Shown in pieces: positions 1,839 through 38,189 of a stretch of DNA of 64,000 nt. The stretch is from Mercenaria mercenaria (lineage: Eukaryota), in the NCBI RefSeq assembly GCF_021730395.1, contig NC_069372.1:62847754-62911753 (forward strand), in the 5' to 3' direction. A program made the position numbers and the translations under genes. The stretch's first letter is position 1; each line of letters begins with the position of its first letter. The notes under the pieces are model-generated. The model made no database searches. It saw only the letters and a program-made list of their open reading frames with translations, and had not been told where the DNA came from.

Positions 1839-2552
1839 TCAAGTAAAGTCTGAAACTAGCCTACTTCTTTCTTTAAAAGCATAATATATATACATTGCTA
1901 GGTTTCTAATAATTTCATCACTTTCTGTTGACATTAGATCATAAAAGTTTTGTATTGTAGCATTGTTAACAAAGTGGTATGGAATGTATAATGACCGAAT
2001 ATTTGAATACAAAGGACATATAAGTACAAAATGAAATTCGTCTTCAATAACAGCTTCACAATATGGACAGTCACGATGTTCTCTATCTAAACCAATATGT
2101 CTACCTTTTTCAATCATGAGATTATGTGAAGAACTTCGAAAATTTGCCATACAGGATCGAAATTTTGCTATATCTACAACAGTAACATACTTCTCAACAT
2201 TGTACAAAGGTTTAAAATGTATATAATGACAAAGTTTACTACTTTCATTGCATCTAGTCCTCCAGTTTTGAACATATTGGTCTTTCAACCTTTGTTCAAA
2301 CTGAAACAGAAAATAGCGTGGTTTAGCGACTTCTTGGCGTTCCCAAATATATCCAAACCCGTTAGTATATAAATATTGTTTTACATCTGTAGCCCAATTT
2401 ATATAACCTAAATTATCATAACATAAAAGCATTTCATAGCACAATTTGATATATCTGTTTCTAGGCAAAGTAAGCAAATATTTGATACAACGTTTAGCTG
2501 AATATATATACATGGGGAATCTACCAACGTCCCCAAGCATCGTTACATGCAC
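1839..2552 (-). CDS. LINE ORF2 C-terminal extension (Cys/His zinc knuckle), separated from the RT ORF by a frame break near 2521..2552
   Basis: 237-aa ORF contiguous with the RT ORF in another frame. It contains HRDCPYCEAVIEDEFHFVLICPLY, a CCHC-type motif common at LINE ORF2 C-termini. Confidence 0.6.
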   Translation of the reverse strand: MHVTMLGDVGRFPMYIYSAKRCIKYLLTLPRNRYIKLCYEMLLCYDNLGYINWATDVKQYLYTNGFGYIWERQEVAKPRYFLFQFEQRLKDQYVQNWRTRCNESSKLCHYIHFKPLYNVEKYVTVVDIAKFRSCMANFRSSSHNLMIEKGRHIGLDREHRDCPYCEAVIEDEFHFVLICPLYSNIRSLYIPYHFVNNATIQNFYDLMSTESDEIIRNLAMYIYYAFKERSRLVSDFT

Positions 2553-5043
2553 TTCTGTTCACTTTAAGAAAGCGTTTACACGCATATACCTGTATTGATT
2601 CGACACATCGCATATGTTTTAGTCCCCATAGTTCTGAACCATATAGTAACACAGCCGCAACTTTTGTATCAAATATTTTAAAGAACGTTTTATAAGGTAA
2701 ACATTGCAAATTTTGTAGAGAATTAAAAATATATATCAGAACTTTTTTCGCTTTAACCGACATAGCTTCAGCCATTTTGTACAATGACAGTCTGTTAGAA
2801 AAATATATGCCAACATAGGTAAAACCATTCACAGTATCTATTACGTTATTACCAAAGAACCAGCGTTCTCTCCTCGCTAATCGTCCACCTCGCTTAAAGA
2901 CCAGTACTTTTGTTTTAGAAATATTTACTGTAAGTTTACTTGAATTACAAAAGGTTTCTAAAATATTTAATTGCCTTTGTAACCCTACTACAGTATCTGC
3001 TAAAAGAGCAATATCATCTGCGAACATAAGTAGGAATATTTCCATAGTATCAGGAAATAACTGGATGCCTCTAGTATTGTTTTGACATAACAAAGTATCC
3101 AATTCGTTTATAAACATGGCAAACAAGATGGGACTCAAGTTACACCCCTGACGTGGTCCAACAGGGCAAGAAAATATACTGGTAAAACCTTGTTGTGTTC
3201 TAACACATGCTTTAACAGACACATAAATGGATTGTATAGCCTTGTATAAATGACCTTGAACACCATTGTTTTTCAAAATATTATACAATACTGACCGGTC
3301 AACCGAATCAAAGGCTTTCTGAAAGTCAATGAAAGCTACGTATATCGATTTTCCTTTTACACTTAAATATTTGTTAACAATAGAATACAGTATAAAGGCG
3401 TTATCAACTGTACAATAACCAGCTCTAAATCCAGCTTGACATTCTGATATTCTACTATATGCTTCTACATAGAAAGTTAACCTTTTGGTAATTATTGATA
3501 TGTAGACTTTACTTAAAATATCTAACAAAGCAATACCCCTGTAGTTATTTGGATTGCTAACACTTCCCTTCTTATGCAGCGGAATAATTATTGACTTGGC
3601 CCACTCATCTGGAAATTCACCTTTTGTAAATAATCTGTTGAACAATTTTCGTATAAAAGGTAATAATACATTTACACCATAAACTATATGCTGTGGAATA
3701 AGGTTACCGCCAGATGCCTTGTGTATATTTAAAGACTTTACAGTATTTACAATCTCGTCATCTGTTATACTAGAATTAAACACTAAGTCCTCGATCTCAT
3801 CGATATTTATATTCATATCAATATCTCTATCGTCCTGTTCATAATCAATATTGTCATCAGCAATATTCGCTGCAAACAAGTTGCTAAAATGTTCAAACCA
3901 GCTGTTCAAAGATATATTTGGTTGCGACTTGGGTTTATCTGTCAATTTCTTCAACTCACGCCAAAACATCCTTGAATTATTTACAACAGATTCTATTTTA
4001 GACACATATTTTTTATTATATAAGTAACGTTTCCGTCTACACATATTTTTATAAACATGTTTGCTATTTATATAGTCGTTCAAATTATTTTCACATCGGC
4101 TGGACCGAAACTTGTTTAAAGCTTTTCTACTCTGTAATTTTGCAGCTTTACAATCACTGTCAAACCATAGTTTATTTTCTTTACGAATAATCGGCCTTCT
4201 TAATTTTTGAAATCTAGCACTGCTATCTACTATAGCCGTTTCCAATTCGCCTACAATAACGTTTATATCAATATTACTGTCGTCTAGCATGTTATCTATC
4301 GGATTGAAAAAACCATTCAGTATATTTTCCGATAAACATTGTAAATACTCCTTACAATTGTCATCATTTAGATTGTAACACAAGTGCAGATTCTCGTCAG
4401 TGGTCACGGGTGTGTCACCATGACTTAATTTCAAACTTAGACTTATAGGCATATGACAACTCTCCGTGTTCGGTGAAATCTGGAACTGTTGAATGAGGTC
4501 AAACAAGCATTTAGATGTTATAAAATAGTCAATAGTACTACAACCATTACTATTAACGAAGGTATAGCCGTTACTCTCTGGATGCACACCAAAACGACCG
4601 TTTGCTATAATACAGGAATACACTTTACAAAATTCTATAAGCTCATGACCGAATTTATTCATCTTGGTGTCAGAAGAAGACCTTGCAATAACTACCTCAC
4701 TGTCAATAATATCTCTAAATTCCGTTAATTCTGGTATATTGACAGAACATGTAACATAGTCTAGAGCGTTAGAAGTTCGGGCATTAAAGTCACCATTTAA
4801 CAACAATTCTGTATCAAGTAATTGATTTGTAATAATACAATCCTCCAGTTCTTGTAACCCCGTCATATCCTTATTATCATAAAACGGAGAATTTTCTGGT
4901 GGTATATACAATGAAACATATAGAACATCTCTATCTGTGGTCAGTAATGTTTTATCAAACAATCGAGCAACAGCACTCCGGAAACATGAATAGAAACCTG
5001 CTGTATTGTGAATCACAACAAACTCAATATCCGAGTTGAACAC
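2521..5043 (-). CDS. LINE ORF2: apurinic-like endonuclease + reverse transcriptase
   Basis: 840-aa ORF. RT motifs are present (…HKKGS…NYRGIALL…, QAGFRAGYCT, FADDIALLAD). The N-terminal ~230 aa is endonuclease-like. Confidence 0.8.
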   Translation of the reverse strand: MFNSDIEFVVIHNTAGFYSCFRSAVARLFDKTLLTTDRDVLYVSLYIPPENSPFYDNKDMTGLQELEDCIITNQLLDTELLLNGDFNARTSNALDYVTCSVNIPELTEFRDIIDSEVVIARSSSDTKMNKFGHELIEFCKVYSCIIANGRFGVHPESNGYTFVNSNGCSTIDYFITSKCLFDLIQQFQISPNTESCHMPISLSLKLSHGDTPVTTDENLHLCYNLNDDNCKEYLQCLSENILNGFFNPIDNMLDDSNIDINVIVGELETAIVDSSARFQKLRRPIIRKENKLWFDSDCKAAKLQSRKALNKFRSSRCENNLNDYINSKHVYKNMCRRKRYLYNKKYVSKIESVVNNSRMFWRELKKLTDKPKSQPNISLNSWFEHFSNLFAANIADDNIDYEQDDRDIDMNINIDEIEDLVFNSSITDDEIVNTVKSLNIHKASGGNLIPQHIVYGVNVLLPFIRKLFNRLFTKGEFPDEWAKSIIIPLHKKGSVSNPNNYRGIALLDILSKVYISIITKRLTFYVEAYSRISECQAGFRAGYCTVDNAFILYSIVNKYLSVKGKSIYVAFIDFQKAFDSVDRSVLYNILKNNGVQGHLYKAIQSIYVSVKACVRTQQGFTSIFSCPVGPRQGCNLSPILFAMFINELDTLLCQNNTRGIQLFPDTMEIFLLMFADDIALLADTVVGLQRQLNILETFCNSSKLTVNISKTKVLVFKRGGRLARRERWFFGNNVIDTVNGFTYVGIYFSNRLSLYKMAEAMSVKAKKVLIYIFNSLQNLQCLPYKTFFKIFDTKVAAVLLYGSELWGLKHMRCVESIQVYACKRFLKVNRSACNDAWGRW

Positions 5044-12240: not shown

Positions 12241-13854
12241 GTATCAAAAGCCAACGTATCATGACAGTCCTCTGAAAATGTAGCATACAACCTCGCCGAA
12301 TGGGCGTTTACATCAAACGCAGGTAGTAAATGACGTAACTGTCACTCTAGTTACCGGTGAGAGGGTAATTTGATCACGCTTGTAGTTTGCTCCGCCCAAA
12401 AGTATACTTCTATCGATCGCAATGGTTTAAAGTTACAGAAAAGAAGCGAGAAAGAGTTGGTTACAAAAGTAAAATATTACGGGAGTTTATTTCAAGATAA
12501 TCCTGCATAATACATTCATACATGTGCATGTACACATACGCAGCATATACACTTAAACCTATTTTCATTATAGATTTGAACTGTATTGATGTGTATAATT
12601 TGTATTTATAGCAACACTCGACGAAATACAACACAACTGCTAACACAAATTGTGTCTGTTACTGTTCAAAGGTTTCATGTATTTATTTTAAATTGATGTA
12701 TCCAGTCTTCGTAAAATATCCACGGATTTCGGTCATGGAAATTTTTTCAAACGCGGAAAATATCGCATACTCGATGTTGTCTTTACACATTGAACTATAA
12801 GGTTCGTTTTTCAATTTTGCTTTCAATTATGAGAATACAAACTTAGCAATATTTATTTATTTATTTATTTCCTGTCGCCACTCGACGGTTTACATGCAGT
12901 CCTCCTGTCCTGTCATGTTGATTGCTATTTTTGCGCGCAAATTATGACCAATATCACTCAACTGAACATGCTTTCAGGTCACTGTTATATTATAGCACTA
13001 AGTCTTGTTTAGTACGTCATTTCTTTTACACATGTGTATCGGACAGTTCTGTAAAGAGCGCAACGCACGCTGAGAGCGACCGAGTAAATCGCGTACAGTC
13101 TTGGCACTTTTTTGTTTTTCATTTTTGCTTAAAACATTTCTAAATGGTGCAGATAAACAGCAGCCAAGTTTCTTTAAACTAATACGAATTTCCTTTCATA
13201 TAGGCTATTAAGCTAAGTATGATGATATGTAATCCGATTGTCGGTAAAAAATACAAAGTGATGCGGTCATTATAATTATAAGTCCATCTGAGTCTGATTA
13301 CTACACCCAGTCTTCCAGGTTTCAAGTGGGTTAATATAGGTTGTCCAAGATGCTGTGTATTTCGATTTTTCCAAGTTCGACGCCGAGAATTGTCGAAGTT
13401 GGACAAGCTTTTGATAGGAAAACTATAGTTATGATTTTAAACGTGATTCTGATTAAATGCATATTATAGTCAAATGGTACGATCGTTAAATACTAGTATT
13501 TGTGACAAATCTAACGGTGAATAAAGTATAAGCAAGATCGCCTTCTACAAACTCTGTGAACGTAGAGGTTCAGTCTTAACTATCACAGTAAATAAAATAC
13601 TTTTACCGATATTTTCTCTCAAACTGTAAAATACCAAACCAAAGGGTCGACGTCGATTAGAATTTCATTGGAAAAGTTTCCTATATGAAAAATCATAAAT
13701 TATTTATAGAAATAGGTCAAATTATTACTGCATACAGAAGACATGTGGTATGCGATGTCATGAATACTTTAGTCAAACGTAAAACAGTAGAGATAAAAAT
13801 AAGCTGTTAGTCGAACACGACGCCCTAAATCAACTTGGGAGTTCTATGCCGACT

Positions 13855-14456
13855 AGTAGTATAAGCGTCGGTTTGGGGGCAAACAAACGGGCGCCATCTT
13901 GGATGACCTAGTTACTATAAAAAGTAACTCATTTGCATATAAGAAATGAATTCATTGCGCATGTGCGGCGGCCATTTTGAATTCTAAGTTTAAAATGACG
14001 TATTTATGAAAATGTTTAGGAATGACTTGTATACCTATCTAGGGCGTGTTCGCGCACATTGAGGGTCAGCCTTACACGGGGAGATAACACGAAAACAAAA
14101 GCTATACGCATGCGTAAAAAAGAACCTCTCGTATAAAAACAATTCGAGAGAAAATGTATAATATAATTACGTACTGTCTACGACTTGACCAATCATTAAA
14201 ATAAAAACTGTACGAGAATAACTATTTATAAAATGAAATTATAAGACAAAATAATACCTACTCAACAGATGTAAACCCGGCGATATCCCGCGCTAAAATG
14301 AACCAACACTTGTACGCCACTCTTTATCCATTTAGAATACCGTCGTTTCTAAACATAAAATAGCCAATCAGAAGGCAGGAAAACGAACCAATGAAACATC
14401 TCCAATAGAGTCGTTTTGACCAATGAAAACGTCGAAATTTTAACCAATCAACGCCC
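13855..14456 (+). repeat. Left terminal inverted repeat of Polinton-like element
   Basis: Reverse-complement of 20714..21597 after removing the nested SINE. Near-identity is seen at both the outer (13861..13950 vs 21509..21597) and inner (14440..14456 vs 20714..20730) parts. Confidence 0.8.
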
Positions 14457-14500
14457 CTCTTCCTTCTCCTCTGCCCGCATTCTGATTGGTCACTCAGGGA
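14340..14500 (+). promoter_or_regulatory. Cluster of ~7 CCAAT/ATTGG boxes at inner edge of left TIR (mirrored in right TIR at 20714..20830). TATA-like CATATAAG at ~14505 and TATATAA at ~15118 lie upstream of the ATPase ORF
   Basis: Repeated CCAATCA/CCAATGA motifs are read directly. Promoter function is inferred only. Confidence 0.3.
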
Positions 14501-14559
14501 TCACACGCATATAAGTCAAAAGTAAATTTAACCATGACTGAAGGTGTTACGAGTTACTT

Positions 14560-15050
14560 TATATACCGACACCACCTCCTCTCCCTCCTCCTCCTCCTCC
14601 TCCACTCCTCCTCCTCCTCTCCTCCTCTTCCTCCACTCCTCCTCCTCCTCCCCCTCCACTCCTCCTCCTCCTCCCCCTCCTCTCCTCCTCCTCCACCACT
14701 CCTCCTCCTCCCTCCTCCTCCACTCCTCCTCCTCCTCTCCTCCTCCTCCTCCCTCCCCCTCCTCCTCCTCTCCACTCCTCCTCCTCCTCTCCTCCCCCTC
14801 CTCCACTCCTCCTTCTCCTCCTCCTCCACTCTTCCTCCTCCTCTTCCTCCACACCTCCTCCTCCTCCACTCCTCCTCCTCTTCCTCCACTCCTCCTCCTC
14901 CTCCTCCTCCACTCCTCCTCCTCCTCCTCCTCCTCCTCCACTCCTCCACTCCTCCTCCTTCACTCCTCCTCCACTCCTCCTCCTCCTCCACTCCTCCTCC
15001 TCCTCCACTCCTCCTCCTCCACTCCTCCACCTCCTCATCCTCTTCCTTCT
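14560..15050. repeat. (CCT/CTCCT)n polypyrimidine microsatellite
   Basis: ~490 bp of CCTCCTCCT/CCACTCCTCC. It is flanked by the direct repeat TCCTTCTCCTCTGCCC (14461.. and 15041..). Confidence 0.9.
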
Positions 15051-15142
15051 CCTCTGCCCAAGAAAGCGTAAGAATGGCTAATAGAACAGAATAAAGCAGT
15101 GTTGTTTTGATAAAAAATATATAACTTACATCGGTTTCACAA

Positions 15143-16552
15143 ATGCATCAGTGTCCTGTTTGCCATCAGTCTTTCTCTAGGATCGACAACATGCGGAGAC
15201 ATCAACGTTATGTCCACGGAAATGACGAAGCCACTGACAGTTTTTCACCGCCATTACAAACATGGGACATCTCAAGAGAGACGACGTTTCAACATCCATT
15301 TTCTATGGTCGTTTCAGGACCAAGTGGTAGTGGAAAAACTGAATGGACAAGAAAACTGTTATCATCAAATCTTGTAAGACCTCAGCCTCAGCGTATCATA
15401 TGGTGTTTTGGACAATGGCAACCATTGTATGATGAACTACGGCGTGAAATCCCCGGGGTCGAATTTGTACACGGTATTCCAGACTACTTGAATGATTCCC
15501 AATATATAAATGTTAATCAAAGGAACCTGCTGGTCTTTGACGACTTGATGACTGAAGCTAAATGCTATCAAAGAATTGCTGATCTCTTTACCAAGGGCAG
15601 TTACCACAGGAACATATCTGTCGTATATCTCACCCAAAATTTGTTCCCTCAAGGTAAAGCTTGTAGGGATATCGCTTTGAATACGCAGTATCTGGTGCTA
15701 TTTAATAATCCTATTGACAGACAACAAGTAGCTACATTGGCGAGAAGAATTTACCCTTCGTCTAGTAACATCTTTATGAAACGGTTTGAACGAGCGACAT
15801 CAAGACCGCACGGTTATTTGGTAATAGACTTAAAATCGAGCACCCCAGAACAACACCGTTTACGCGATAACATTTTCGAGGCGAACAATCCAGAAAAGAG
15901 AAAACGAACAGATGATGAATATAAACCAGAAGACTATTTCAATGGAGAAGGATACTTATCGGACAAAAATGATGACAAGGATGAAGATGAGGAGGAGGAC
16001 TATGATGACCATGATGATGATAGTGGTGATGAAACAGAAAATAGAAATAATGACACAAGCTTTGTAAAGAAACGATCTTTGATCAAGGGACCTCCCGGTA
16101 AACGTAGAAAAGTTGAGATTATAGAAGAGCGATCACGCCGTGAGATATGGGATAAGCGTTTTCAGGATCCTCTCAGACAATCTATTAAAGAACAATTCAG
16201 AGCTAAAGTTAACAACTATACGGAACAAGGGCTCTCTTTTGAAGAAGCTTACCGTCGCACCGCTAATGACAAATTGCCTCAACTAAGAAAGAGACTGAGA
16301 CAAAATTATGCCCGATTTCTAATTGACTTTTATGAGCTACAAAACGATCCTACTCAGCAGCAGATTCTACAGTCGGCTAAGAAGCTAAGAAGTCAGCACG
16401 ACATGACTGTCAAAGAATCTATTCGACAAGCCATTGCGCTTAGAAAAGACCTATTTGATGAGTTGTGGCCCGATCATGAAAGCAAAGAAGAATATTCAAT
16501 GGATGATAATAAAGAAGCTGATGACGATCAAGAATCTGATGATGGAGAATGA
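15143..16552 (+). CDS. Polinton-type DNA-packaging ATPase (A32/FtsK-HerA-like P-loop NTPase) with N-terminal C2H2 zinc finger and acidic/basic low-complexity C-terminal half
   Basis: 469-aa intact ORF. It has CPVCHQSFSRIDNMRRHQRYVHG (C-x2-C-x12-H-x4-H), Walker A VVSGPSGSGKTEW, Walker B LLVFDDL and YLTQN. The C-terminus has D/E-rich and KRRK-containing segments. Confidence 0.75.
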   Translation: MHQCPVCHQSFSRIDNMRRHQRYVHGNDEATDSFSPPLQTWDISRETTFQHPFSMVVSGPSGSGKTEWTRKLLSSNLVRPQPQRIIWCFGQWQPLYDELRREIPGVEFVHGIPDYLNDSQYINVNQRNLLVFDDLMTEAKCYQRIADLFTKGSYHRNISVVYLTQNLFPQGKACRDIALNTQYLVLFNNPIDRQQVATLARRIYPSSSNIFMKRFERATSRPHGYLVIDLKSSTPEQHRLRDNIFEANNPEKRKRTDDEYKPEDYFNGEGYLSDKNDDKDEDEEEDYDDHDDDSGDETENRNNDTSFVKKRSLIKGPPGKRRKVEIIEERSRREIWDKRFQDPLRQSIKEQFRAKVNNYTEQGLSFEEAYRRTANDKLPQLRKRLRQNYARFLIDFYELQNDPTQQQILQSAKKLRSQHDMTVKESIRQAIALRKDLFDELWPDHESKEEYSMDDNKEADDDQESDDGE

Positions 16553-16597
16553 ACGTTGTAAGAAGGATTGGCGTGATTTAACTTTCACCATGCCAAA

Positions 16598-16885
16598 ATG
16601 GGCTCCATAGAAGTGTACGATTATAAACAAGAAAAATGGGTACCGGATAAACCGGACCCGGAAAAATGGATACAACATTTCAAAGACCTGAGGGACGGAT
16701 ACGTACGGCCTGATCATATGGGCCGTTACTTTGTAGGGAGCGGTGCATATCGAAGAAAAATGGCCGAATTAAAAGAGGAACAAGAAAGGGAAGCAATGAA
16801 ACCAGAACAAAAAGGGGAAGATCTCCCCGTAGTAAAACTTGTGACACCCATAGCCCAGCGGTTGATATTGCTAGGTCGGAAATAA
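16598..16885 (+). CDS. Hypothetical ORF between ATPase and protease (possible remnant of a Polinton structural gene)
   Basis: 95-aa ORF. No recognisable motif, only its position. Confidence 0.25.
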   Translation: MGSIEVYDYKQEKWVPDKPDPEKWIQHFKDLRDGYVRPDHMGRYFVGSGAYRRKMAELKEEQEREAMKPEQKGEDLPVVKLVTPIAQRLILLGRK

Positions 16886-17032
16886 GACGGTCACGAAAGC
16901 AAAGTGATCTGAAGCGACATAACGATAAAATGGACACACCATTGAGTCGTGATTTAGACAGCCCACGACGTAAGAAATATCGCGAAAGCATGACCCAAGG
17001 TACTATGGATTGGAACACCTATACATTTTAAA

Positions 17033-17448
17033 ATGAATAACTACGAACTCGAGGAAATGTTAAAAGAGTACCCTGTGACAATATGCGCTGCGGACCAACT
17101 TCAAATACGTAGAGGACAATACGTCATTTCAAATACAGACACGAGCCAGGGATCAGGAAAACATTGGGTGGTCTTTTATTTTCCAAAAAGGGACCCGTCG
17201 AATTTTTCGATTCACTAGGTAATACACCAGAGCACTACAAAGTTCATTTTGAGCAAGCGTTAAAGAAGCGTTATTGGATGAACTTCAGTCAAATACAGGA
17301 TACGGATTCAAACATATGCGGGCTATATTGCGTATATTACATTATGAACCGATGTTCCGGACAAAAAATGAAGGACATTTTAAAACCGTTTGATGTGTAT
17401 CATCGCAAGAAGTTTAATGATGACTTTATTTTGTCTTATTTTAGTTGA
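17033..17448 (+). pseudogene. Adenovirus-type cysteine protease (adenain/C5 peptidase, Polinton PRO), split by a +/-1 frameshift in a homopolymer near 17180..17195
   Basis: Frame 1 reads …GSGKHWVVFYF (His of triad in 'HW'). Frame 2 reads …FFDSLG… (Asp) and …QIQDTDSNICGLYCVYY (Gln and the Cys nucleophile in CGLYC). The frame break lies in ttttccaaaaaggg. Confidence 0.7.
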
Positions 17449-18439
17449 TACATGTAGTCTGTTTTAGTGATACAAGCTTTGGCAATAAAAGATTGAAAGA
17501 ACAATATGTCTTTGTTATTTATAACCTATACGTTCGAATTTGATTTGAAAGAAAAGATGAAGAGTTTGTAGGTGTGGTGGTGTATACAAATAAAACAACA
17601 TATTCGTTTACTGCATTTTATTTATTCAATATCGTTTTCACAAATTGATATCATGCTTCGCAATAAGAGTCTCTAGCAGTTCTAAATGAAGTATTGCATC
17701 AGTAATATCTACAGATTTCGTAAGTAAAATAACATTCCAGTTTGGAACAGCTTTGAACCAAACTATCGCAAAAATGACAAGTTTTAACATGTAAGCTAGC
17801 CTTTCTTTGAGACTTTTGAACCAGTCAGAATGCGTCGTATCACTAGTCAATCAGAGCATTGCTAAGCCAAAACGTTGCTTTGGCTCTGTTTATTATACTT
17901 CGCCCTGTAAATTCATTCACTGCCATTTTGGATATCAAAGTGTAATGATTACTTTGGCGTATTTCTCGCATGAGTGATTTGACTTCCGTTTTAAGTTTAT
18001 TGCCTTATAGTACTTATCGAGACATTCGGTTAGATACCAAACATGTCTAGGTTATCAGAGGAGGAGAGGTGTTGTCGGTATATACAGTAACGCCTTCTTC
18101 CATAACGCCTACAATTTTACGCAGGAGTGACCACGCATTCAAATTCTGTATACAACGCAATAGTCCTCGTTACCTTTCATTTGATACCAAACACTGCTAA
18201 AGTCGTTCCAAGCATAATAGAGAAATGTTGTACTTTACGTTTTTCTAACAGATAGGTAAGGTAAGACAACCATCGTGCTTAATTGACTGCCGTGTCAATA
18301 GTTATTCATCTATGATTTAAAGAAAAGTAAACATTCCTTTCTATTATTACATTAAAAAATATTGTAAACCGTTAGAGGAAATAAATAAACTCAGTAACCA
18401 AGCTTTTAAATTCCGTTAGTATTTATAAAGCTATACACT

Positions 18440-19100
18440 GAAGTTATAAAACACGCTCAATAATGCTGAAAAATGTTAAACTACGTGCTATCGCTTGTCA
18501 AAATTCTGCTTCCTGATTGGCTGTAGGTAGCGAAGTGTTATTTACTATACCAGAGTTCTACAGGTAAATATCATTCGGTTAAAGGATCTGGTAGAGCGCA
18601 CATCACGGTTTATGCTGTATGAACGATTATATTAGGTATTTCTGTTTCATTTTCGTTCAGGTAAATTAATGACATTTTGCTATAATCATTTCTATACTTA
18701 TGCATAAAGCGTTAACGGCGCTCTTTAAAATCAATATATATGTAGCACGGAGTAAAGCGATACGGGTCTTAACCTGTCAGGTGTATTGGAAAAGTGTTAC
18801 CGCTTGTCAAAATTCTGCATTCTGATTGGCTGTTGGTAGTGATAGGATATTTCTATTCAACCATCTAAAGATTTGATTCATTAGGCGAATTTATCCGGAC
18901 TGGTAAGTTGTATGAATAATTTAGTTAATTATTTCTATTTTATTTCGTATCGGGTTTATCAAAGAAATTGTAATCATTATATTAATGCTCCCATAAATCG
19001 AATCCTGCGCTAAAATCATCGTATTTGTACGCTATAGTACGGGTTTAAGCCTGTCAAAAATATTTTATTCTCTGATCAGTCTTCAGACTTACCGTTGCCA
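18440..19100. repeat. Internal dispersed ~330-bp-spaced repeats containing GCTTGTCAAAATTCTGC.TYCTGATTGGCTGT.GGTAG (CCAAT-box core)
   Basis: Three related copies at ~18480, ~18800 and ~19060 (partial). The region 17450..20700 lacks ORFs. Confidence 0.4.
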
Positions 19101-20713
19101 TTTGACGGTATGATGCAGAAGAGAACGCGTGGCATTTGACTGAAATCCTGTATCCCCGCAAAATTCGTCTGCGCCGGTGAAAGTGTTAACGATAAAGTCA
19201 AAGTTTTCCATGTCACCGGTATGAATTCTAAAGTAGAGATGGTACCTACCCAAATAAATCAAAGGGGGACAACTCTGAATTGATCAATAAACTGAAGCCA
19301 ATATTAAACATTGATCAAAAGTGAAAGAAAGATCAGATAGGTCCTTTTATCAGGCAGACAAAATATGACCTATATTTGTTTAAATCCCTTTGTATTCAAT
19401 ATACAATATGCACGCTTTTCTCATGACTTACACTGACAGTTATTTTGTAAGCTGTAGTGAGGCCCTGATAGAAAGTTTATTAATGCATGAAGATTATATA
19501 GAATAATGCATACATTCCTTTGAAGAAAATTAACGACATTAAGAAACATTATTAAGTTTTGATCTTTTAGCCAAAGTTGTTTATTTATTGTTCTCAATGG
19601 TGATACATTGGTTTACACAGCATTTATATATCAAAATGTAAAATGTATATATCCAACAATGAGAAATAACAAAAAAAAGTTAAATTGGTAATACAAAAAT
19701 TCACTGTCGTCAAATATAATTACAATGTTTTAAGGTAGTGGTTGTAATTACTACATGTTAAGGTAGCTGACAGCTGACTCTATGTAATGTATTTTAAGCA
19801 ATTCTCAATTTAAACATTCTCTGGAGGGAACTAGCACGATCATTTGCTTTCCTTGAAAAACGAATAAATGCTGAAAAAGCATATGGAGATTACTCTATTT
19901 GATGATTTTCGTTACAGGTCAACTACCCTAAACAAACTAAAAGGTGTTTTATTTATTGTTGAAAACAAAGTAATCGGATAATTTCAGATATCAACATCAA
20001 TTTAAAACTTATACTGTTTACACAACTTCAAAAATGTTTTTGTTGGGGCCTCTCATTTACAAATATATCAACAATTATCACCTGAATCGAGTGCATTCAT
20101 GAGTGAAAAATATTGATGGTAAAATGGCGTAGGGGTTTGTTTACAATATAAAATCTTTAATAACTTCTTTAAGGTACATTTTTGGGATGGTTTTGGTAAG
20201 CTTATAATAAAGAGCATGTCATTCTCTTTCACTCAGAATTTTTTCAAGCGTTTTAGACTATTGGCTAGTCTTGGAATTTGACTTTATTAAAAGACAAAAG
20301 GAAGTTCAGTATAGGCTCTTTCAAAATGTTGAAAGTAGAGTAAACTTACCTTATACTCTATTGAATTTATTTAGCTGTGGGAGCTTTTGATATAGACTAT
20401 AATTGGGGAAGTCCTAAAATCTTTGAAAAACGGTCAATACAAGAGTTGTCCATTTTGCTTCAGATATTTTGAGAAAGTCATTTTTTAGATATCAAATATT
20501 TCTATTTTTGACATGGAGAAGAGGAAAACCATAAATATATTTAGAAAATTGGTGCACTTAGCTATCACTTCACTCTGAAAAAAAAACCTATAAAGATGAA
20601 TTTGAATTTTTTAGGTACCATCTCTATCTAAAGGATGACGATTAACGGCTGCGCACTCTCTTATATACAATTCGCGTTCTGAATTCGCGATGTCATTCGT
20701 CAATAATATTGAG

Positions 20714-21597
20714 CGTTGATTGGTTAAAATTTCGACGTTTTCATTGGTCAAAACGACTTTATTGGAGATGTTTCATTGGTTCGTCTTCCTACCTTCTGAT
20801 TGGCTATTTTATGTTTAGAAACGACGGTATTCTAAATGGACAAGGAGTGGCGTACAAGTGTTGGTTCATTTTAGCGCGGGATATCGACGGGTTTACATCT
20901 GTTGAGTGAGTAATATTTTGTCTTATAATTTCATTTTATAAATAGTTATTCTCATATAGTTTTTATTTTAATGATTGGTCAAGTCGTAGACTGTACGTAA
21001 TTATATTATACATTTTCTTTCGAATGGTTTTTATACGAGAGGTTCTTTTTTACGCATGCGTATAGCTTTTGTTTTCGTGTTATCTCCCCGTGTAGGGCTG
21101 ACCCTCAATGTGCGCGAACACGCCCAAGATAGGTATACAAGTCATTCCTAAACATTTTCATAAATACGTCATTTTAAACTTAGAATTCAAAATGGCCGCC
21201 GCACATGCGCAGTGAATTCATTTCTTATATGCATTTTTTTTTTGTTGGGTTTAACGTCGCACCGACACAATTTTAGGTCATATGGCGACTTTCCAGCTTT
21301 AATGGTGGAGGAAGACCCCAGGTGCCCCTCCGTGCACTATTTCATCACGAGCGGGCACCTGGGTAGAACCACCGACCTTCCGTAAGCCAGCTGGATGGCT
21401 TCCTCACGTGAAGAATTCTACGCCCCAAATGAGGTTTCAAACCCACGTCGATGAGGGGCAAATGGTTTGAAGTCAACGACTCTAACCACTCGGCCACGGA
21501 GGCCCCTTCTTATATGCAAATGAGTTACTTTTTATAGTAACTAGGTCATCCAAGATGGCGCCCGTTTGTTTGCCGCCAAACCGACGCTTATACTACT
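20714..21597 (-). repeat. Right terminal inverted repeat of Polinton-like element (interrupted by a SINE at 21234..21506)
   Basis: Reverse-complement match to 13855..14456. The segments 21165..21233 and 21507..21597 become contiguous in the left TIR (13861..14000). Confidence 0.8.
21234..21506 (-). mobile_element. tRNA-derived SINE (family B) nested in Polinton right TIR, 12-bp TSD TTCTTATATGCA
   Basis: The poly(A) tail (poly-T on +) is at 21234. The head GGGGCCTCCGTGGCCGAGTGGTTAGAGTCGTTGAC (minus strand) ends at 21506. Flanking TSDs are at 21222..21233 and 21507..21518. The insertion is absent from the left TIR. Confidence 0.7.
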
Positions 21598-21664
21598 CCG
21601 ACTTCTGCTTTATTGCAACTAAATTTTTACCTGCCCGTGTGATTTCTAGACTCCGATCCATCGT

Positions 21665-22939: not shown

Positions 22940-24530
22940 AATTATGGTTGGAACATCGATGCAGCCAGTGCTGATTTGAATCCGAAGATTGTTTCAGCAC
23001 TGACTACATGAGATGGTAAGACGTTCCACTCTACCACAGTTCTGGGGAAGAATGAGTATTTGTAGTAGTCAACTGTGGTAGAAGGTATTTGCAGAGCTAA
23101 GTGATGGTAATGTCTAGATTGTCTAGTGATTGGAGCGAGATATTGTTTAGGATCGACATCAACATGATTATGAACCATTTTGTAAAATAAAACCAACCTA
23201 CTATATTTTATATATACCTCTCTTAGCAGAATGTATATTACGTTTTAAGAAACCAATACTTTGACATGCATTACTAGATATTTTGTTTATATGAGGGGAC
23301 CAAGATAAGTTAGATGTTACTTCTACACCTAGGTAAGTAGCTCCCATAATGACAGACTGTTAAGGTCCTGTTGCAGCTGAGCTGAGTCTGCCTGTGACTT
23401 AATTGTTCTGACACAGTCATCTGCAAAATGACGCACATTGGAAGATACAGAACCCGGTAGGTCATTTATGTAGAGCAGGAGTAGTAAAGGTCCCAGGACG
23501 GACCCCTGGGGACGCCTGATATAACAGGAGCCAAGCCAGATGTTGCCCCAGCTACCACCACCCTTTGTGTTCTATGTCCTAGGAAAGCTTTGATCCAGGA
23601 ATGTGCAGAGCCCCTGATGCCATAGTGATCTAATTTTAATAAGAGCCGGCCACGGTGAACTACATCAAAGGCTTTACTAAAGTCCATGATGGCAACATCA
23701 ACTTGGCTTCGCTGTACTGATTTAGCTATGTCATGGATAAAACCCACAAGTTAGGTCTCGCAAGACCGCCGGGCACGAAAACCATGCTGGTTGTCCACCA
23801 GGATGTTAAATTTGTCTAAGTGATTCAAGATATTACTGACCACAATGTGTTCTAATAGTCTGCAAGCTATACATGTCAATGAGACTGGTCTATAAATTGA
23901 AGCTTGAAACTTTTCACCTTTTTTAAAGATTGGTGTTACGTAAGCCTCAGACCAATCTGAGGGAACAGTACCACTATCAAGAGATTTATTAAACAATATT
24001 GTAAAGATTGGAGCTATTTCAGTTGCACATTCTTTTAAAATTCTAGGTTTGATTTGGTCTGGACCTGCTGCTTTGTACGGGTTTAAATTTTCAAGAAATT
24101 TCTTAACACCATTTTCAGTTACTTTTATTCTGGGCATGCTAGCAAATGGGCTAGGACCAAGATTTGGTAAGCTTGGACTGGGGTCATTTGTAAATACTGA
24201 AGAAAACTGTTTATTTAAAATTTCTGACTTATCCTTGGCACTAGATTTCAAGACACCATTTTCTCTCAGAGGAGCAACAACACAAGAGTCATTTTTCAAA
24301 CTTTTAATAAAACCCCAGAAACGTTTAGTTGTGCCATGTTTATGTTCTTCTGAGCTACAAATAATATTATTCATGTAGTCCCAATATGAATTACGTGTTT
24401 TCTTTTGGATAAGAGTTTTAATCTTTTTAAGTTTAGAAAACCATGGAAGATGATGTCTACCTGAGACAATTTTGCTCGGTACATGACTTGCTAGCTCATC
24501 TAATTTCTGTTTAAAGCTATGCCACAATTC
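22940..24530 (-). pseudogene. Degraded LINE (CR1/L2-like) reverse-transcriptase fragment
   Basis: Three minus-strand ORFs in different frames (23751..24527, 23466..23747, 22942..23196). RT motifs are present (KAAGPDQI…YRPVSLTCI…, MDFSKAFDVV). Confidence 0.65.
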
Positions 24531-28924: not shown

Positions 28925-31900
28925 ATCAAAGGAGGGTTTTGTGGTGGTGTGCGAGGTGCTGGTGATGATGTGCCAAATGTTAGGGTTGCTGTAGATGGTG
29001 GTGTGCGAGGTACCCGGGTTGCAATACGTGGTAGTTTACGAGATGCCAGGGTTGCTGTAGGTGGTGTATTACGAGGTACTGGGATTGCTGTAGGTGATAT
29101 TGTGTGAGGGGTCAAGGTTGCTGTAGGTGATGTATTACGAGGTTCCAGGATTGCTGTAGGTGATATTGTTTGAGGTGTCAAGGTTGCTGTAGGTGGTATA
29201 AAACGAGGTGCCAGGATTGCTGTAGGTGACATGTTTGAGGTGTCAAGGTTGCTGTAGGTGGTGTATTACGAGGTGCCAGGATTGCTTTAGGTGATATTGT
29301 TTGAGATGTCAAGGTTGCTGTAGGTGGTGTATTACGAGGTGTCAGGATTGCTGTAGGTGATATTGTTTGAGGTGTCAAGGTTGCTGTAGGTGGTGTATTA
29401 CGATACGAGGTGCCAGGATTCCTGTAGGTGATATTGTTTGAGGTGTCAAGATTGCTGTAGGTGGTGTATTACGAGGTGCCAGGTTTGCTGTAGGTGATAT
29501 TGTGTGAGGTGTCAAGGTTGCTGTAGGTGGTGTATTACGAGTGCCCGGATTGCTGTAGGTGATATTGTGTGAGGTGTCAAGGTTGCTCTAGGTGGTGTAT
29601 TACGAGGTGCCAGGATTGCTGTAGGTGATATTGTGTGAGGTGTCAAGGTTGCTCTAGGTTGTGTATTACGAGGTGCCCGGATTGCTGTAGGTGATATTGT
29701 TTGAGGTGTCAAGGTTGCTGTAGGTGGTGTATTACGAGGTGCCAGGATTGCTGTAGGTGATATTGTTTGAGGTGTCAAGGTTGCAGTAGGTGGTGTATTA
29801 CGAGGTGCCAAGATTGCTGTAGGTGATATTGTGTGAAGTGTCAAGATTGCTGTAGGTGGTGTATTACGAGGTGCCAGGATTGCTGTAGGTGATATTGTGT
29901 GAGGTGTCAAGGTTGCTGTAGGTGGTGTATTACGAGGGGGCTTGATTGCTGTAGGTGATATAGTGTGAGTTGTCAGGGTTGCTGTAGGTGGTGTATTACT
30001 AGGTGCCAGGATTGCTGTAGGTGATACTGTTTGAGGTGTCAGGGTTGCTGTAGGTGGTGTATTACGAGGTGCCAGGATTGCTCTAGGTATTATTGTGTGA
30101 GGTGTCAAGGTTGCTGTAGGTGGTGTATTACGAGGTGCCGGGATTGCTGTAGGTGATATTGTGTGAGGTGTCAAGGTTGCTGTAGGTGGTGTATTACGAG
30201 GTGCCGGGATTGCTGTAGGTGATAATGTGTGAGGTGTCAAGGTTGCTGTAGTTGGTGTTTTACGAGGTACCGGGATTGCTGTAGGTGATATTGTGTGAGG
30301 TGTCAAGGTTGCTGTAGATGGTGTATTACGAGGTGCCAGGATTGCTGTAGGTGACATGTTTGAGGTGTCAAGGTTGCTGTAGGTGGTGTATTACGAGGTG
30401 CCAGGATTGCTGTAGGCGATATTGTGTGAGGTGTCAAGGTTGCTGTAGGTGGTGTATTACGAGGTGTCAGGATTCCTGTAGGTGATATTGTTTGAGGTGT
30501 CAAGGTTGCTGTAGGTGGTGTATTACGAGGTGCCAGGATTCCTGTAGGTGTTATTGTTTGAGGTGTCAAGGTTGCTGTAGGTGGTGTATTACGAGATGCC
30601 AGGATTGCTGTAGGTGATATTGTTTGAGGTGTCAAGGTTGCTGTAGGTGGTGTATTATGAGGTGTCCGGATTGCTGTAGGTGATATTGTGTGAGGTGTCA
30701 AGGTTGCTGTAGGTGGTGTATAACGAGGTGCCCGGATTGCTGTAGGTGATATTGTTTGAGATGTCAGGGTTGCTCTAGGTGGTGTATTACGAGGTGCCAG
30801 GATTGCTGTAGGTGATATTGTTTGAGGTGTCAAGGTTGCTGTAGGTGGTGTATTACGAGGTGCCCGGAATGCTGTAGGTGATATTGTGTGAGGTGTCAAG
30901 GTTGCTCTAGGTGGTGTATTACGAGGTGCCAGGATTGCTGTAGGTGATATTGTTTGAGGTGTCAAGGTTGCTGTAGGTGGTGTATTACGAGGTGCCAGGA
31001 TTGCTGTAGGTGATATTGTGTGAGGTGTCAAGGTTGCTGTAGGTGGTATATTACGAGGTGCCAGGATTGCTGTAGGTGATATTGTGTGAGGTGTTAAGGT
31101 TGCTGTAGGTGGTGTTTTACGAGGGGGCTTGATTGCTGTAGGTGATATTGTGTGAGGTGTCAGGGTTGCTGTAGGTGGTGTATTACGAGGTGCCATGATT
31201 GCTTTAGGTGATACTGTTTGAGGTGTCAGGGTTGCTGTAGGTGGTGTATTACGAGGTGCCAGGATTGATCTAGGTATTATTGTGTGAGGTGTCAAGGTTG
31301 CTGTAGGTGGTGTATTACGAGGTGCCGGGATTGCTGTATGTGATATTGTGTGAGGTGTCAAGGTTGCTGTAGGTGGTGTATTACGAGGTACCGGGATTGC
31401 TGTAGGTGATATTGTGTGAGGTGTCAAGGTTGCTGTAGGTGATGTATTACGAGGTACCAGGATTGCTGTAGGTGATATTGTTTGAGGTGTCAAGGTTGCT
31501 GTAGGTGGTGTATTACGGGGTGCCAGGATTGCTGTAGGTGATATTGTGTGAGGTGTCAAGGTTGCTGTAGCGGGAGTATTACGAGGTGCCAGGATTGCTA
31601 TAGGTGATATTGTGTGAGGTGTCAAGGTTGCTGTAGGTGGTGTATTACGAGTTGCCAGGATGCTGTAGGTGATATTGTGTGAGGTGTCAAGGTTGCTGTA
31701 GGTGGTGTATTACGAGGTGCCCGGATTGCTGTAGGTGGTATTGTGTGAGGTGTCAAGGTTGCTGTAGGTGGTGTATTACGAGGTGCCAGGATTGCTGTAG
31801 GTGTATTACGAGGTGCCAGGATTGCTGAAGGTGATATTGTTTGAGGTGTCAAGGTTGCTGTAGGTGGTGTATTACGAGGTGCCAGGATTGCTGTAGGTGA

Positions 31901-34900
31901 TATTGTGTGAGGTGTCAAGGTTGCTGTAGGTGGTGTATTACGAGGCGCCAGGGTTGCTGTAGGTGATATTGTTTGAGGTGTCAAGGTTGCTGTAGGTGGT
32001 GTATTACGAGGGGCCTTGATTGCTCTAGGTGATATTGTGTGATGTGTCAGGGTTGCTGTAGGTGGTGTATTACGAAGTGCCAGGTTGCTGTAGGTGATAC
32101 TGTTTGAGGTGTCAGGGTTGCTGTAGGTGGTGTATTACGAGGTGCCAGGATTGCTGCAGTTGATATTGTGTGAGGTGTCAAGATTGCTGTAGTCGGTGTA
32201 TAACGAGGTGCCGGAATTGCTGTAGGTGATATTGTGTGAGGTGTCAAGGTTGCTGTAGGTGGTGTATTACGAGGTACCGGGATTTCTTAGGTGACATTGT
32301 TTGAGGTGTCAATGTTGTTGTAGGTGATGTATTACGAGGTTCCAGGATAGCTGCAGGTGATATTGTTTGAGGTGTCAATGTTGCTGTAGGTGGTGTATTA
32401 CGAGGTGCCAGGATTGCTGCGGGTATTATTGTGTGATGTGTCAAGGTTGCTGTAGGTGGTGTATTACGAGGTACCGGGGTTTCTAAGGTGATATTGTTTG
32501 AGTTGTCAAGGTTGCTGTAGGTGATGTATTACGAGGTTCCAGGATTGCTGCAGGTGATATTGTTTGAGGTGTCAATGTTGCTGTAGGTGGTGTATTACGA
32601 TGTGCCAGGATTGCTGTAGGTATTACTGTGTGAGGTGTCAAGGTTGCTGTATGTGGTGTATTACGAGGTGCCCGTATTGCTGTAGGTGTTATTGTGTGAG
32701 GTGTCAAGGTTGCTGTAGGTGGTGTATTACGAGGTGCCCGGATTGCTGTAGGTGATATTGTGTGAGGTGTCAAGGTTGCTCTAGGTGGTGTATTACGAGG
32801 TGCCAGGATTGCTGTAGGTGATATTGTGAGGTTTCAAGGTTGCTCTAGGTGGTGTATTACGAGGTGCCAGGATTGCTGTAGGTGATATTGTTTGAGGTGT
32901 CAAGGTTGCTGTAGGTGGTGTATTACGAGGTGCCAGGATTGCTGTAGGTGATATTGTGTGAGGTGTCAAGGTTGCTCTAGGTGGTGTATTACGAGGTGCC
33001 AGGATTGCTGTAGGTGATATTGTGTGAGGTGTCAAGGTTGCTGCAGGTGGTGTATTACGAGGTGCCCGGATTGCTGTAAGTGATATTGTGTGAGGTGTCA
33101 AGGTTGCTCCAGGTGGTGTATTACGAGGTGCCAGGATTGCTGTAGGTGATATTGTTTGAGGTGTCAAGGTTGCTGTAGGTGGTGTATTACGAGGTGCCGG
33201 ATTGCTGAAGGTGATACTGTGTGGAGTGTCAAGGTTGCTCTAGGTGGTGTATTACGAGGTGCGAGGATTGCTGTAGGTGATATTGTTTGAGGTGTCAAGG
33301 TTGCTCTAGGTGGTGTATTACGAGGTGCCCGGATTGCTGTAGGTGATATTTTGTGAGGTGTCAAGGTTGTTGTAGGTGGTGTATTACGAGGTGCCAGGAT
33401 TGCTGTAGGTGATATTGTTTGAGGTGTCAAGGTTGCTGTAGGTGGTGTATTACGAGGTGCCAGGATTGCTGTAGGTGATATTGTGTGAGGTGTCAAGGTT
33501 GCTGTAAGTGGTGTATTACGACGTGCCAGGATTGCTGTAGGTGATATTGTTTGAGGTTTCAAGGTTGCTGTAAGTTGTGTATTACGAGGTGCCAGGATTG
33601 CTGTAGGTGATATTTTGTGAGGTGTCAAGGTTGTTGTAGTTGATGTATTACGAGGTTCCAGGATTGCTGTAGGTGATATTGTTTGAGGTGTCAAGGTTGC
33701 TGTAGGTGGTGTATTACGAGGTGCCAGGATTGCTGTAGGTGATATTGTGTGAGGTGTCAAGGTTGCTCTAGGTGGTGTATTACGAGGTGCCAGGATTGCT
33801 GTAGGTGATATTGTTTGAGGTGTCAAGGTTGCTGTAGGTGGTGTATTACGAGGTGCCAGGATTGCTGTAGGTGATATTGTGTGAGGTGTCAAGGTTGCTG
33901 TAGGTGGTGTATTACGAGGTGCCAGGATTGCTGTAGGTGATATTGTGTGAGGTGTCAAGGTTGCTGTAGGTGGTGTATTACGAGGAGCCTTGATTGCTGT
34001 AGGTGATATTGTGTGAGGTGTCAAGGTTGCTGTAGGTGGTGTATTACGAGGTGCCAGAATTGCTGTAGGTGATATTGTTTGAGGTGTCAGGGTTGCTGTA
34101 GGTGGTGTATTACGAGGTGCCAGGATTGCTGCAGGTGATATTGTGTGAGGTGTCAATGTTGCTGTAGGTGGTGTATAACGAGGTGCCGGGATTGCTGTAG
34201 GTGATATTGTGTGAGGTGTCAAGGTTGCTGTAGGTGGTGTATTACGAAGTACCGGGATTGCTGTGGGTGATATTGTGTGAGGTGTCAAGGTTGCTGTAGG
34301 TGGTGTAATACGAGGTACCAGGATTGCTGTAGGTGATATTGTTTGAGGTGTCAATGTTGCTGTAGGTGGTGTATCACGAGGTGCCAGCATTGCTGTAAGT
34401 GATATTGTGTGAGGTGTCAAGGTTGCTGTAAGTGGTGTATTACGAGGTGCCAGGATTGCTGTAGGTGATATTGTTTGAGGTGTCATGGTTGCAGTAGGTG
34501 ATGTATTACGAGGTTCCAGGATTGCTGCAGGTGATATTGTTTGAGGTGTCAATGTTGCTGTAGGTGGTGTATTACGATGTGCCAGGATTGCTGTAGGTAT
34601 TACTGTGTGAGGTGTCAAGGTTGCTGTATGTGGTGTATTACGAGGTGCCCGTATTGCTGTAGGTGTTATTGTGTGAGGTGTCAAGGTTGCTGTAGGTGGT
34701 GTATTACGAGGTGCCCGGATTGCTGTAGGTGATATTGTGTGAGGTGTCAAGGTTGCTCTAGGTGGTGTATTACGAGGTGCCAGGATTGCTGTAGGTGATA
34801 TTGTGAGGTTTCAAGGTTGCTCTAGGTGGTGTATTACGAGGTGCCAGGATTGCTGTAGGTGATATTGTTTGAGGTGTCAAGGTTGCTGTAGGTGGTGTAT

Positions 34901-37900: not shown

Positions 37901-38180
37901 CTGTAGGTATACTAGGTACCCTGGTTGATATGCGTGGTGGTGTACAAAGTGGTAGGGTTGCTGTAGGTGATGAAGTACGAAGTGCCGGGATTGCTGTAGG
38001 TGATATTTTTTGAGTTGCCGGGATTTCTATAAGTGGTGGTAAACGAAATGCATGGGTTGCTGTAAGTTAATGTATACGAAGTCCCGTGGTTGCTGTGCGT
38101 GTTGGTTCACGAAGTTGAGGGTTACTGTAGGTGATGATGTATGTGGTGCCGAGGTTGTTGTAGCTAGTGGTGCTATACGA
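28925..38180 (-). repeat. ~9.2-kb tandem array of 66-bp units (33-bp half-units). The minus strand reads as T/P-rich 22-aa repeats TPQTISPTAILAPRNTPPTATL (mucin/PTS-like)
   Basis: Unit ggtgtcaaggttgctgtaggtggtgtattacgaggtgccaggattgctgtaggtgatattgtKtga is repeated ~140 times. Minus-strand ORFs of 120-693 aa are interrupted about every 0.3-2 kb by frame breaks. Confidence 0.9.
35799..37880 (-). CDS. Longest uninterrupted reading frame of the repeat array (693 aa of TP-rich 22-aa repeats): putative mucin-like repeat exon or coding-competent satellite
   Basis: Stop-free for 2.08 kb in one frame only. Periodicity in multiples of 3 is maintained. No start or end context was identified. Confidence 0.3.
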   Translation of the reverse strand: MAPRNTPPTATLTPHTISPTAILAPRNTPPTATLTPQTISPSAILAPRNTPPTATLTPHTISPTVILAPRNTPPTATLTPHTISPTAILAPRKTPPTATLTPQTISPTAILAHRNTPPTATLTPHTISPTAILAPRNTSPIATLTPHTISPIAILAPRNTSPTATMTPQTISPTAILAPRNTPLTATLTPHTISLTAMLAPRDTPPTATLTPQTISPTAILVPRITPPTATLTPHTISPTAIPVPRNTPPTATLTPHTISPTAIPAPRYTSPTATLTPHTISPAAILAPRNTPPTATLTPQTISPTAILAPRNTPPTATLTPHTISPTAIKAPRNTPPTATLTPHTISPTAILAPRNTPPTATLTPHTISPTAILAPRNTPPTATLTPQTISPTAILAPRNTPPTATLTPHTISPTAILAPRNTPPTATLTPQTISPTAILEPRNTSTTTTLTPHKISPTAILAPRNTQLTATLKPQTISPTAILARRNTPPTATLTPHTISPTAILAPGNTTPTATLTPHTISPTAILAPRNTPLTATLTPHTISPTAIPVPRNTPPTATSTPQTISPTAILAPRNTPLTATLTPHTISPTAILAPRNTPPTATLTPQTISPTAILAPPNTPPTTTLTPHKISPTAIRAPRNTPPTATLTPQTISPTAILAPRNTPPRATLTLHTVSPSAIRHLVIHHLQQP

Positions 38181-38189
38181 GATGCTTTG

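Follow-up and report, generated by a model that had tools for sequence, protein, structure and literature searches.

A short, probably helper-dependent relative of Maverick/Polinton transposons with a conserved ATPase–X core

Mavericks (Polintons) straddle the boundary between transposons and viruses, and particle formation by animal Mavericks is an open question. In vertebrates, intact Mavericks measure 12.7–24.6 kb and have terminal inverted repeats (TIRs) of 46–1,447 bp, perfect 6-bp duplications and, as the commonest end motif, 5′-(AGT)2//(ACT)2-3′; defective loci, termed 'genomic fossils', make up 96% of vertebrate loci (PMC8097293). That defective Mavericks are common is already known. 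Here we describe a 7,743-bp element (positions 13855–21597) in a 64,000-nucleotide stretch of Mercenaria mercenaria DNA (contig NC_069372.1, positions 62,847,754 to 62,911,753 of the forward strand; hereafter the window). The element has Maverick-like ends and encodes a packaging ATPase, a small protein that we call X and an adenain-like protease. A previous sequence-only reading had taken it for an internally deleted copy, which is too simple: eight relatives share the ATPase–X core and the same gene losses, and the genes are under purifying selection. Sequence comparison indicates that the element is a member of a conserved, multi-genome lineage defined by a long-form ATPase and X, not a one-off deletion. 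Taken as a whole, it is probably best explained as a non-autonomous, helper-dependent descendant of a Maverick/Polinton virus-like transposon. In the literature searched, which did not extend to Repbase, we found no description of a conserved ATPase–X(–protease) lineage lacking polymerase, integrase and capsid; on non-autonomous Mavericks/Polintons the search yielded only a remark on Tlr1.

The eight related loci (L001–L008) come from other assemblies and were fetched with 10-kb flanks. Canonical Mavericks were obtained from JGI metagenomes, where a scan with the ATPase profile gave 80 loci, the longer contigs carrying the classic gene set. On contig L037 these genes follow one another on the same strand: polymerase (PolB, a large open reading frame (ORF) of protein-primed polymerase (pPolB) size), an ATPase of ~200 aa, a post-ATPase protein of ~210 aa, an integrase with rve and chromo domains, two capsid-sized proteins and a C5 protease. 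Over 6,000 Maverick integrases matched an integrase profile, and two of them were placed (L091 and L092). L092 (8198–18201; 10,004 bp) carries integrase, capsid candidates, protease and ATPase between AGTAGT/ACTACT ends, with the duplication AATACA, and is the only canonical Maverick contig examined that has complete ends, the others ending inside the element. Its PolB is nearly all lost, with a remnant left, and it is a polymerase-less derivative of another kind than the short elements.

Ends, genes and interior of the element

A repeat search of the window paired 13855–14454 with 20713–21597 in two blocks, 13934–14454 against 20713–21233 (521 nt, 97%) and 13855–13945 against 21507–21597 (91 nt, 99%). 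The right arm is longer solely through a 273-bp insertion at 21234–21506. When this insertion and one copy of its 12-bp duplication were removed, 582 of 600 nt matched, with 18 mismatches and no indels (97.0% identity; Kimura two-parameter distance 0.031). The element runs from AGTAGT (left terminus AGTAGTATAAGC, from 13855) to ACTACT (right terminus GCTTATACTACT, up to 21597), its terminal 25–30 nt open with AGTAGTATAAGCGTCGGTTTGG, and the hexamer CCGACT stands directly outside both ends as a perfect 6-bp target-site duplication (TSD). The long inverted repeats, AG/CT termini and TSD reported from the sequence alone were all borne out. No further copy of the TIR was found elsewhere in the 64-kb window, and five relatives have the same end motif and a 6-bp TSD. 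The empty site TCTATGCCGACTTCTGCTTT was absent from the window and from the fetched loci. The features of the element are as follows.

13849–13854, no strand: left copy of the TSD, CCGACT, read directly and identical to 21598–21603
13855–14454, + strand: left TIR, 600 nt, beginning AGTAGTATAAGC; 582/600 matches to the right arm
14553–14584, + strand: left arm of an inner inverted repeat on either side of the gene core (88% complementarity over 32 nt; E = 1.6e-4 by within-window blastn)
14575–15054, + strand: (CCT)n-rich microsatellite, 480 bp, between left TIR and ATPase gene (tandem-repeat search)
15143–16552, + strand: long-form packaging ATPase, intact ORF, 469 aa (Pfam, identity, AlphaFold2, fold match)
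16598–17028, + strand: protein X, ~130–144 aa (144 after repair), stop codon 17029–17031 (homologues in eight related loci)
17033–17448, + strand: adenain-like cysteine protease (clan CE, C5), ~138 aa after repair (Peptidase_C5, canonical identity)
17449–20712, no strand: non-coding or unidentified filler, 3.26 kb (ORF, Pfam, tblastn, Rfam and relatives all negative)
18060–18091, − strand: right arm of the inner inverted repeat (repeat search, blastn)
20713–21597, − strand: right TIR, 600-nt repeat plus insertion, ending GCTTATACTACT (repeat search, arm alignment)
21234–21506, − strand: repeat resembling a short interspersed element (SINE), 273 bp, A10 tail, 12-bp duplication TTCTTATATGCA (sequence, arm alignment)
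21598–21603, no strand: right copy of the TSD, CCGACT, identical to the left copy

The first gene encodes an A32/IVa2-type packaging ATPase in a derived long form, composed of a zinc finger, the ATPase and a helical tail. It scored above the Pfam cut-offs for both Pox_A32 (28.2 bits; cut-off 22.8) and Adeno_IVa2 (24.6 bits; cut-off 21), as expected from the Polinton ATPase named in the sequence-only reading. A C2H2 zinc finger occupies residues 1–26, and the ASCE core (~48–245) has intact Walker A (GPSGSGKT) and Walker B (LLVFDDLM) motifs. An AlphaFold2 model built with 42 relatives shows the finger, the core (~48–245) and a helical domain (~326–445), the latter two predicted with confidence and joined by an acidic, disordered linker. 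In a PDB fold search, which was dominated by the core and not by the C-terminal domain, the best target-normalised match was B204, the genome-packaging NTPase of Sulfolobus turreted icosahedral virus 2 (STIV2). The core is 39–44% identical to the ATPases of metagenomic Mavericks that have an rve+chromo integrase, capsid-like proteins and a protease. The C-terminal domain showed no relation to the canonical post-ATPase protein or to X (hhalign).

The second gene, X, had been missed. The claim that the interior carries only an ATPase and a protease was correct as to the presence of both and wrong in leaving out this third conserved gene at 16598–17028. X follows the long-form ATPase in 8/8 fetched loci and is present in all nine elements, the window included, where it is split by a 1-nt deletion at ~16858/16859. 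The protein has no Pfam or PHROG match, and none of its 653 relatives in the protein database carries a Pfam domain. Its AlphaFold2 model, a beta-hairpin plus helices, is of moderate confidence (predicted local distance difference test, pLDDT, 72), and a Foldseek search of BFVD gave nothing at E ≤ 0.001, with no nuclease-like or recombinase-like match. Profile alignment of X to the canonical post-ATPase protein was limited to 12 columns of the C-terminal tail and was not significant (E = 0.1). This sole aligning part, a basic stretch followed by (D/N/E)-W-x-x-(Y/F), was seen in X of the window (16990–17028), L001, L002, L004 and L006 and in the post-ATPase proteins of L037, L062, L079 and L039; judging by the motif, it could be a shared functional tail.

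One nucleotide separates X from the protease gene, which is itself split by a 1-nt deletion in the G-run at 17190–17192. The protein keeps the His, Asp and Gln...Cys motifs and is 26–41% identical to canonical Maverick proteases. The repaired window copy falls below the Peptidase_C5 cut-off (E = 0.0021; 18.2 bits against 21.3), whereas its intact orthologue in L001 exceeds it (23.6) and has the S273R protease of African swine fever virus as its best PDB sequence match. These results uphold the earlier call of an adenain-type protease.

The window copy itself is old, decaying and probably inactive: divergence between its TIRs has reached 3%, frameshifts interrupt both X and the protease, and the right TIR holds a SINE-like repeat. 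Its ATPase ORF remains open. Each frameshift reflects the loss of a single G from a short G-run. The inserted repeat has a T10 run at its start on the + strand, is flanked by its own 12-bp duplication TTCTTATATGCA (21222–21233 and 21507–21518) and has partial copies in the window at 46088–46274 and 39618–39667. Its 5′ end reads, to our eye, like a tRNA box A/B, and neither ARAGORN nor Rfam called a tRNA in it.

Several sequence motifs lie in or near the TIRs. CCAAT/ATTGG boxes cluster at their inner ends (14300–14500 and 20700–20850, 5–6 per 200 bp), the left cluster being the densest of all, with 6 per 200 bp where the window mean is 0.36, and TATAAG follows at ~14511. From their sequence and position, the clusters and TATAAG look like candidate inward-facing promoters. 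Subterminal GCCATnTT/AAnATGGCG motifs occur at 13892–13978 and, mirrored, in the right TIR, and lie less than ~120 nt from the ends in the window element, L003 (as tandem copies) and L007. These could be putative integrase, ATPase or promoter sites; they resemble YY1 sites.

The microsatellite lies between the left TIR and the ATPase gene, and the long ORFs listed within it (14575–15054) are low-complexity (CCT)n artefacts. In L001 and L002 different tandem arrays occupy this position, in inverted orientation and flanking both sides of the core. The 32-nt inner inverted repeat surrounds the (CCT)n array and the three genes, and its significance is uncertain. An exact 21-nt direct repeat (14456–14476 and 15039–15059) encloses a 583-bp segment that contains the array.

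The remaining 3.26 kb (17449–20712) is the ORF-free stretch of ~3.2 kb described from the sequence alone, and it is real: its longest ORF is 70 aa, a six-frame Pfam scan (17440–20720) was empty, and there was no Rfam match, no tandem repeat and no similarity to the relatives by blastn or tblastx. For tblastn, the PolB queries were ORFs from L037, L088, L036 and L044, the integrase queries were four rve+chromo integrases, and the major and minor capsid protein (MCP/mCP) queries came from five canonical contigs, where they were assigned by position and mutual similarity and not by profile. With these PolB, integrase, mCP and MCP queries (seven contigs in all), neither the 64-kb window nor L001–L008 gave a match at E ≤ 0.1. 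Pfam found no rve domain in the ORFs of the window, and no transposase domain (DDE or other) or helicase domain in these ORFs or in the ORF-poor stretch. None of these searches gave a remnant of the missing genes in 17449–20712. The suggestion that the missing genes had stood there is probably wrong, because in L037 the integrase and capsid genes sit between the post-ATPase gene and the protease, whereas the element has a single nucleotide between X and the protease, and the stretch has no similarity to the relatives.

A lineage of short elements

The relatives show that the gene content of the window element recurs elsewhere. No polymerase, integrase or capsid gene was found in the eight fetched loci, and in the clade of long-form ATPases an integrase lies within reach at 0/14 loci. 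The protease directly follows X in L001, L002, L004 and L006, that is, in five of nine elements when the window is counted. Five relatives with defined ends (L002, L003, L004, L006 and L007) are 6.0–12.0 kb long and run from AGTAGT to ACTACT, with 29–30 of 30 terminal bases complementary in these and in the window element. Each is flanked by a perfect 6-bp duplication (CTAGAA, CAAACA, TGTAAT, GTTCCA and AGTAAG, respectively), all different from one another and from CCGACT. The L007 terminus AGTAGTATAGGGGTCGGTTTAGGG resembles the window terminus AGTAGTATAAGCGTCGGTTTGGGG.

A neighbour-joining tree built from ATPase cores united the window element, L001–L007 and five short metagenome contigs (L011–L015) in one clade apart from the canonical short ATPases. 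The protein database holds 169 relatives of the ATPase, many with full-length identities of 54–67%; megabase contigs from ENA assemblies (~20x coverage, host-associated) carry most of them. Clusters at 90% identity can be large (P0013, 1,802 members; P0049, 303). One 2-kb contig was binned with a metagenome-assembled genome of 'Candidatus Thiodiazotropha', a group of lucinid clam symbionts.

In codon comparisons, all three genes show purifying selection in the lineage. For unsaturated pairs, dN/dS was 0.13–0.39 for the ATPase and 0.12–0.17 for the protease, and 0.19–0.31 for X in the informative ones. The two short elements L001 and L004, from one assembly, gave an ATPase dN/dS of 0.175 at dS 0.11; their X value of 0.76 comes from a near-identical pair with very few substitutions and is uninformative.

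Members of the lineage differ in their further genes and in their layout. A BIR-domain gene of the inhibitor-of-apoptosis (IAP) kind is present in L001 (13136–13543), L004 (13310–13675), both arms of L007, L011 and L013, and a PC4-like gene in L003 (11452–11937) and L011, as well as in canonical contigs such as L037. A second, deeply divergent A32-type ATPase paralogue of ~475 aa lies upstream on the opposite strand in L001 (8016–9443, −), L002 (8087–9166, −, with a mirror copy) and L004 (7779–9188, −); in L002 it sits within the long terminal repeats. L003 (3980–13046), L005 and L007 (5431–12854) are near-perfect palindromes with arms of 3–4 kb and a spacer of 0.1–0.4 kb, each arm carrying ATPase, X and cargo.

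Helper dependence and alternative explanations

Relatedness to Mavericks/Polintons, proposed from the sequence alone, is supported by the ATPase profiles, the 39–44% identity to canonical ATPases, the adenain-like protease, and ends with a 6-bp TSD as in vertebrate Mavericks. The proposed non-autonomous status likewise agrees with the Pfam and tblastn results, as no polymerase, integrase or capsid gene was found. Because it lacks these genes, the element must depend on a helper. We propose that the rve integrase of autonomous Mavericks in the same genome would integrate it in trans, and that its DNA would be copied by the protein-primed polymerase of the helper or by host replication; mobilisation in trans is presumably how such elements move. 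The arrangement of ATPase, small protein and protease could have arisen from the L037 gene order by loss of PolB and of the block from integrase to capsid. Because they are under purifying selection within the lineage, the three genes may contribute to the spread of the element. Their most likely contribution would be in particles built by the helper, in which the zinc-finger-tagged ATPase would direct packaging of the element's own DNA and the protease would mature the capsids. The short elements might then be satellites of Mavericks, a lineage that sustains itself with its own packaging ATPase (elaborated by fusion to a DNA-binding zinc finger and a new helical domain), X and often a protease, and that uses the capsids and integrase of a helper; we put this forward tentatively, as a possibility on the doubtful side.

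Several points weigh against helper dependence as we read it. L091, L092 and the other canonical Mavericks retrieved come from samples other than those of the short elements, and by tblastn neither the 64-kb window nor the 10-kb flanks of the eight relatives contained a helper Maverick. Trans-mobilisation is an inference; L092 shares the end motif and the duplication length. The derivation from the L037 order would have to accommodate an X whose sequence has no significant similarity to the canonical post-ATPase protein. The packaging role is a proposal, as neither X nor the C-terminal domain of the ATPase could be assigned a function. The ATPase tree has no support values, and the frameshifts in X and the protease, lying in short G-runs, could be assembly errors. 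Finally, the purifying selection could partly date from autonomous ancestors, which is less likely for the L001–L004 comparison, as both copies are of the short type.

Under the best-surviving alternative, the window element is a one-off, internally deleted autonomous Polinton, in which ATPase and protease are idle passengers and the 3.2-kb stretch marks the deletion. The degraded state of the window copy, with two frameshifts and a SINE, suits this explanation, as do the preponderance of defective loci among vertebrate Mavericks (96%; PMC8097293) and L092, which shows that partial deletions (of PolB) happen. A single deletion would, however, leave unexplained why eight relatives share ATPase and X, four of them with a protease tightly linked to X, and all miss the same genes. 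Their ATPases are a distinct long form in one clade, dN/dS is well under 1, and the 3.2-kb stretch holds no remnant of any Maverick gene. We regard this explanation as largely refuted and unlikely.

Alternatively, the lineage could be a new autonomous kind of element that needs no helper, with an unrecognised integration activity in X, in the ATPase C-terminal domain or in the second paralogue. In its favour, neither X nor the C-terminal domain has a known match, there are clusters of great size (P0013, 1,802 members) and none of the 14 clade loci has an integrase within reach. Against it, Mavericks with an rve integrase have ends and a 6-bp duplication of just this kind, the ATPase core has an ordinary packaging-type ASCE fold, and X is small, a beta-hairpin plus helices (pLDDT 72) with no nuclease- or recombinase-like match; we consider this explanation very improbable. 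A last alternative is that there is no mobile element, and that host genes came to be enclosed by an inverted duplication, be it segmental or due to chance, or that a viral fragment was endogenised. This accords with the presence of viral-type genes and nothing more, and is refuted by 600-nt repeats that stop exactly at AGTAGT/ACTACT with identical hexamers outside (chance 1 in 4,096), and by the same pattern with a different duplication at each of five other loci.

Outside the element, the window contains other repeats and genes. A LINE-type (long interspersed element) ORF of 840 aa with endonuclease and reverse-transcriptase domains lies at 1839–5043 (−), and a separate reverse-transcriptase fragment at 23751–24527 (−). 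A tandem array of ~10 kb (29050–39087) is built of a 66-bp unit (two 33-bp halves); for most of the array, matches are 91–92% and indels 0%. The array shows strong GC skew and long minus-strand open frames of up to 693 aa, and may be a repetitive coding exon instead of a satellite. A paralogous pair of intronless ORFs (56434–57582 and 60594–61739, both +; 381–382 aa) gave weak Mab-21/nucleotidyltransferase (cGAS-like) signals, all under the Pfam cut-offs.

Comparison with known systems

The window copy alone, an old and decaying example, is of little interest. The lineage is more informative, as it is widespread and present in high copy number, without genes for replication, integration or capsids, yet with its ATPase and protease under purifying selection. 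Retention of these two genes is hard to explain if they were useful only in the element's own virion, which suggests parasitism of helper Mavericks. There is also a consequence for genome surveys. Marker-gene surveys assign Polinton-like 'viral regions' up to 16% of some bivalve genome assemblies (bioRxiv 10.1101/2025.04.19.649669), and a 2026 preprint reports the highest content of such regions in bivalves; these surveys may be counting many non-autonomous elements of this kind.

The closest described systems are the autonomous Mavericks/Polintons (polintoviruses, adintoviruses; PMC8097293; here L037, L088, L091 and L092). These share with the element TIRs of a few hundred nt, (AGT)2//(ACT)2 ends, a 6-bp TSD, an A32/IVa2-type ATPase (39–44% identity in the core) and an adenain-like protease (26–41%). 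In contrast, pPolB, the rve+chromo integrase and both capsid proteins (major and minor) are missing from the element, which at 7.7 kb is shorter than the 12.7–24.6 kb of intact vertebrate copies. Canonical ATPases (~200 aa) are without the N-terminal C2H2 finger and the ~220-aa C-terminal extension found here, and X, for which no homology to the canonical post-ATPase protein was detected, takes that protein's place. By definition, the element is not a Polinton (PMC5499653). Defective Mavericks ('genomic fossils') and L092 resemble it in the loss of essential genes, in helper dependence and, for the window copy, in decay. They differ in that the gene loss seen here is common to a lineage across assemblies, which has kept its remaining genes under selection and gained lineage-specific domains and cargo (BIR, PC4 and the second ATPase).

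Other derivatives of the Polinton supergroup that are minus pPolB and/or integrase include Tlr1, sometimes termed a non-autonomous polinton, the polinton-like viruses (PLVs) and the transpovirons (PMC5499653, PMC11161782). Tlr1 and PLVs keep capsid genes (MCP and usually mCP), replicate by means of helicase-type proteins and usually have no protease, whereas the element has a protease and neither a capsid homologue nor a helicase domain. In transpovirons a pPolB derivative persists and the structural module is gone, whereas of the morphogenetic module the element retains ATPase and protease alone, and it has no replication gene.

By analogy only, phage-inducible chromosomal islands and virophages may also be compared, in that a small, capsid-less element with packaging-related proteins of its own may use the particles of a helper. 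This satellite analogy is hypothetical. If true, it would place these elements, some with anti-apoptotic cargo (BIR) as well, alongside phage satellites as their counterpart among eukaryotic transposons, and would provide indirect evidence for particles of animal Mavericks.

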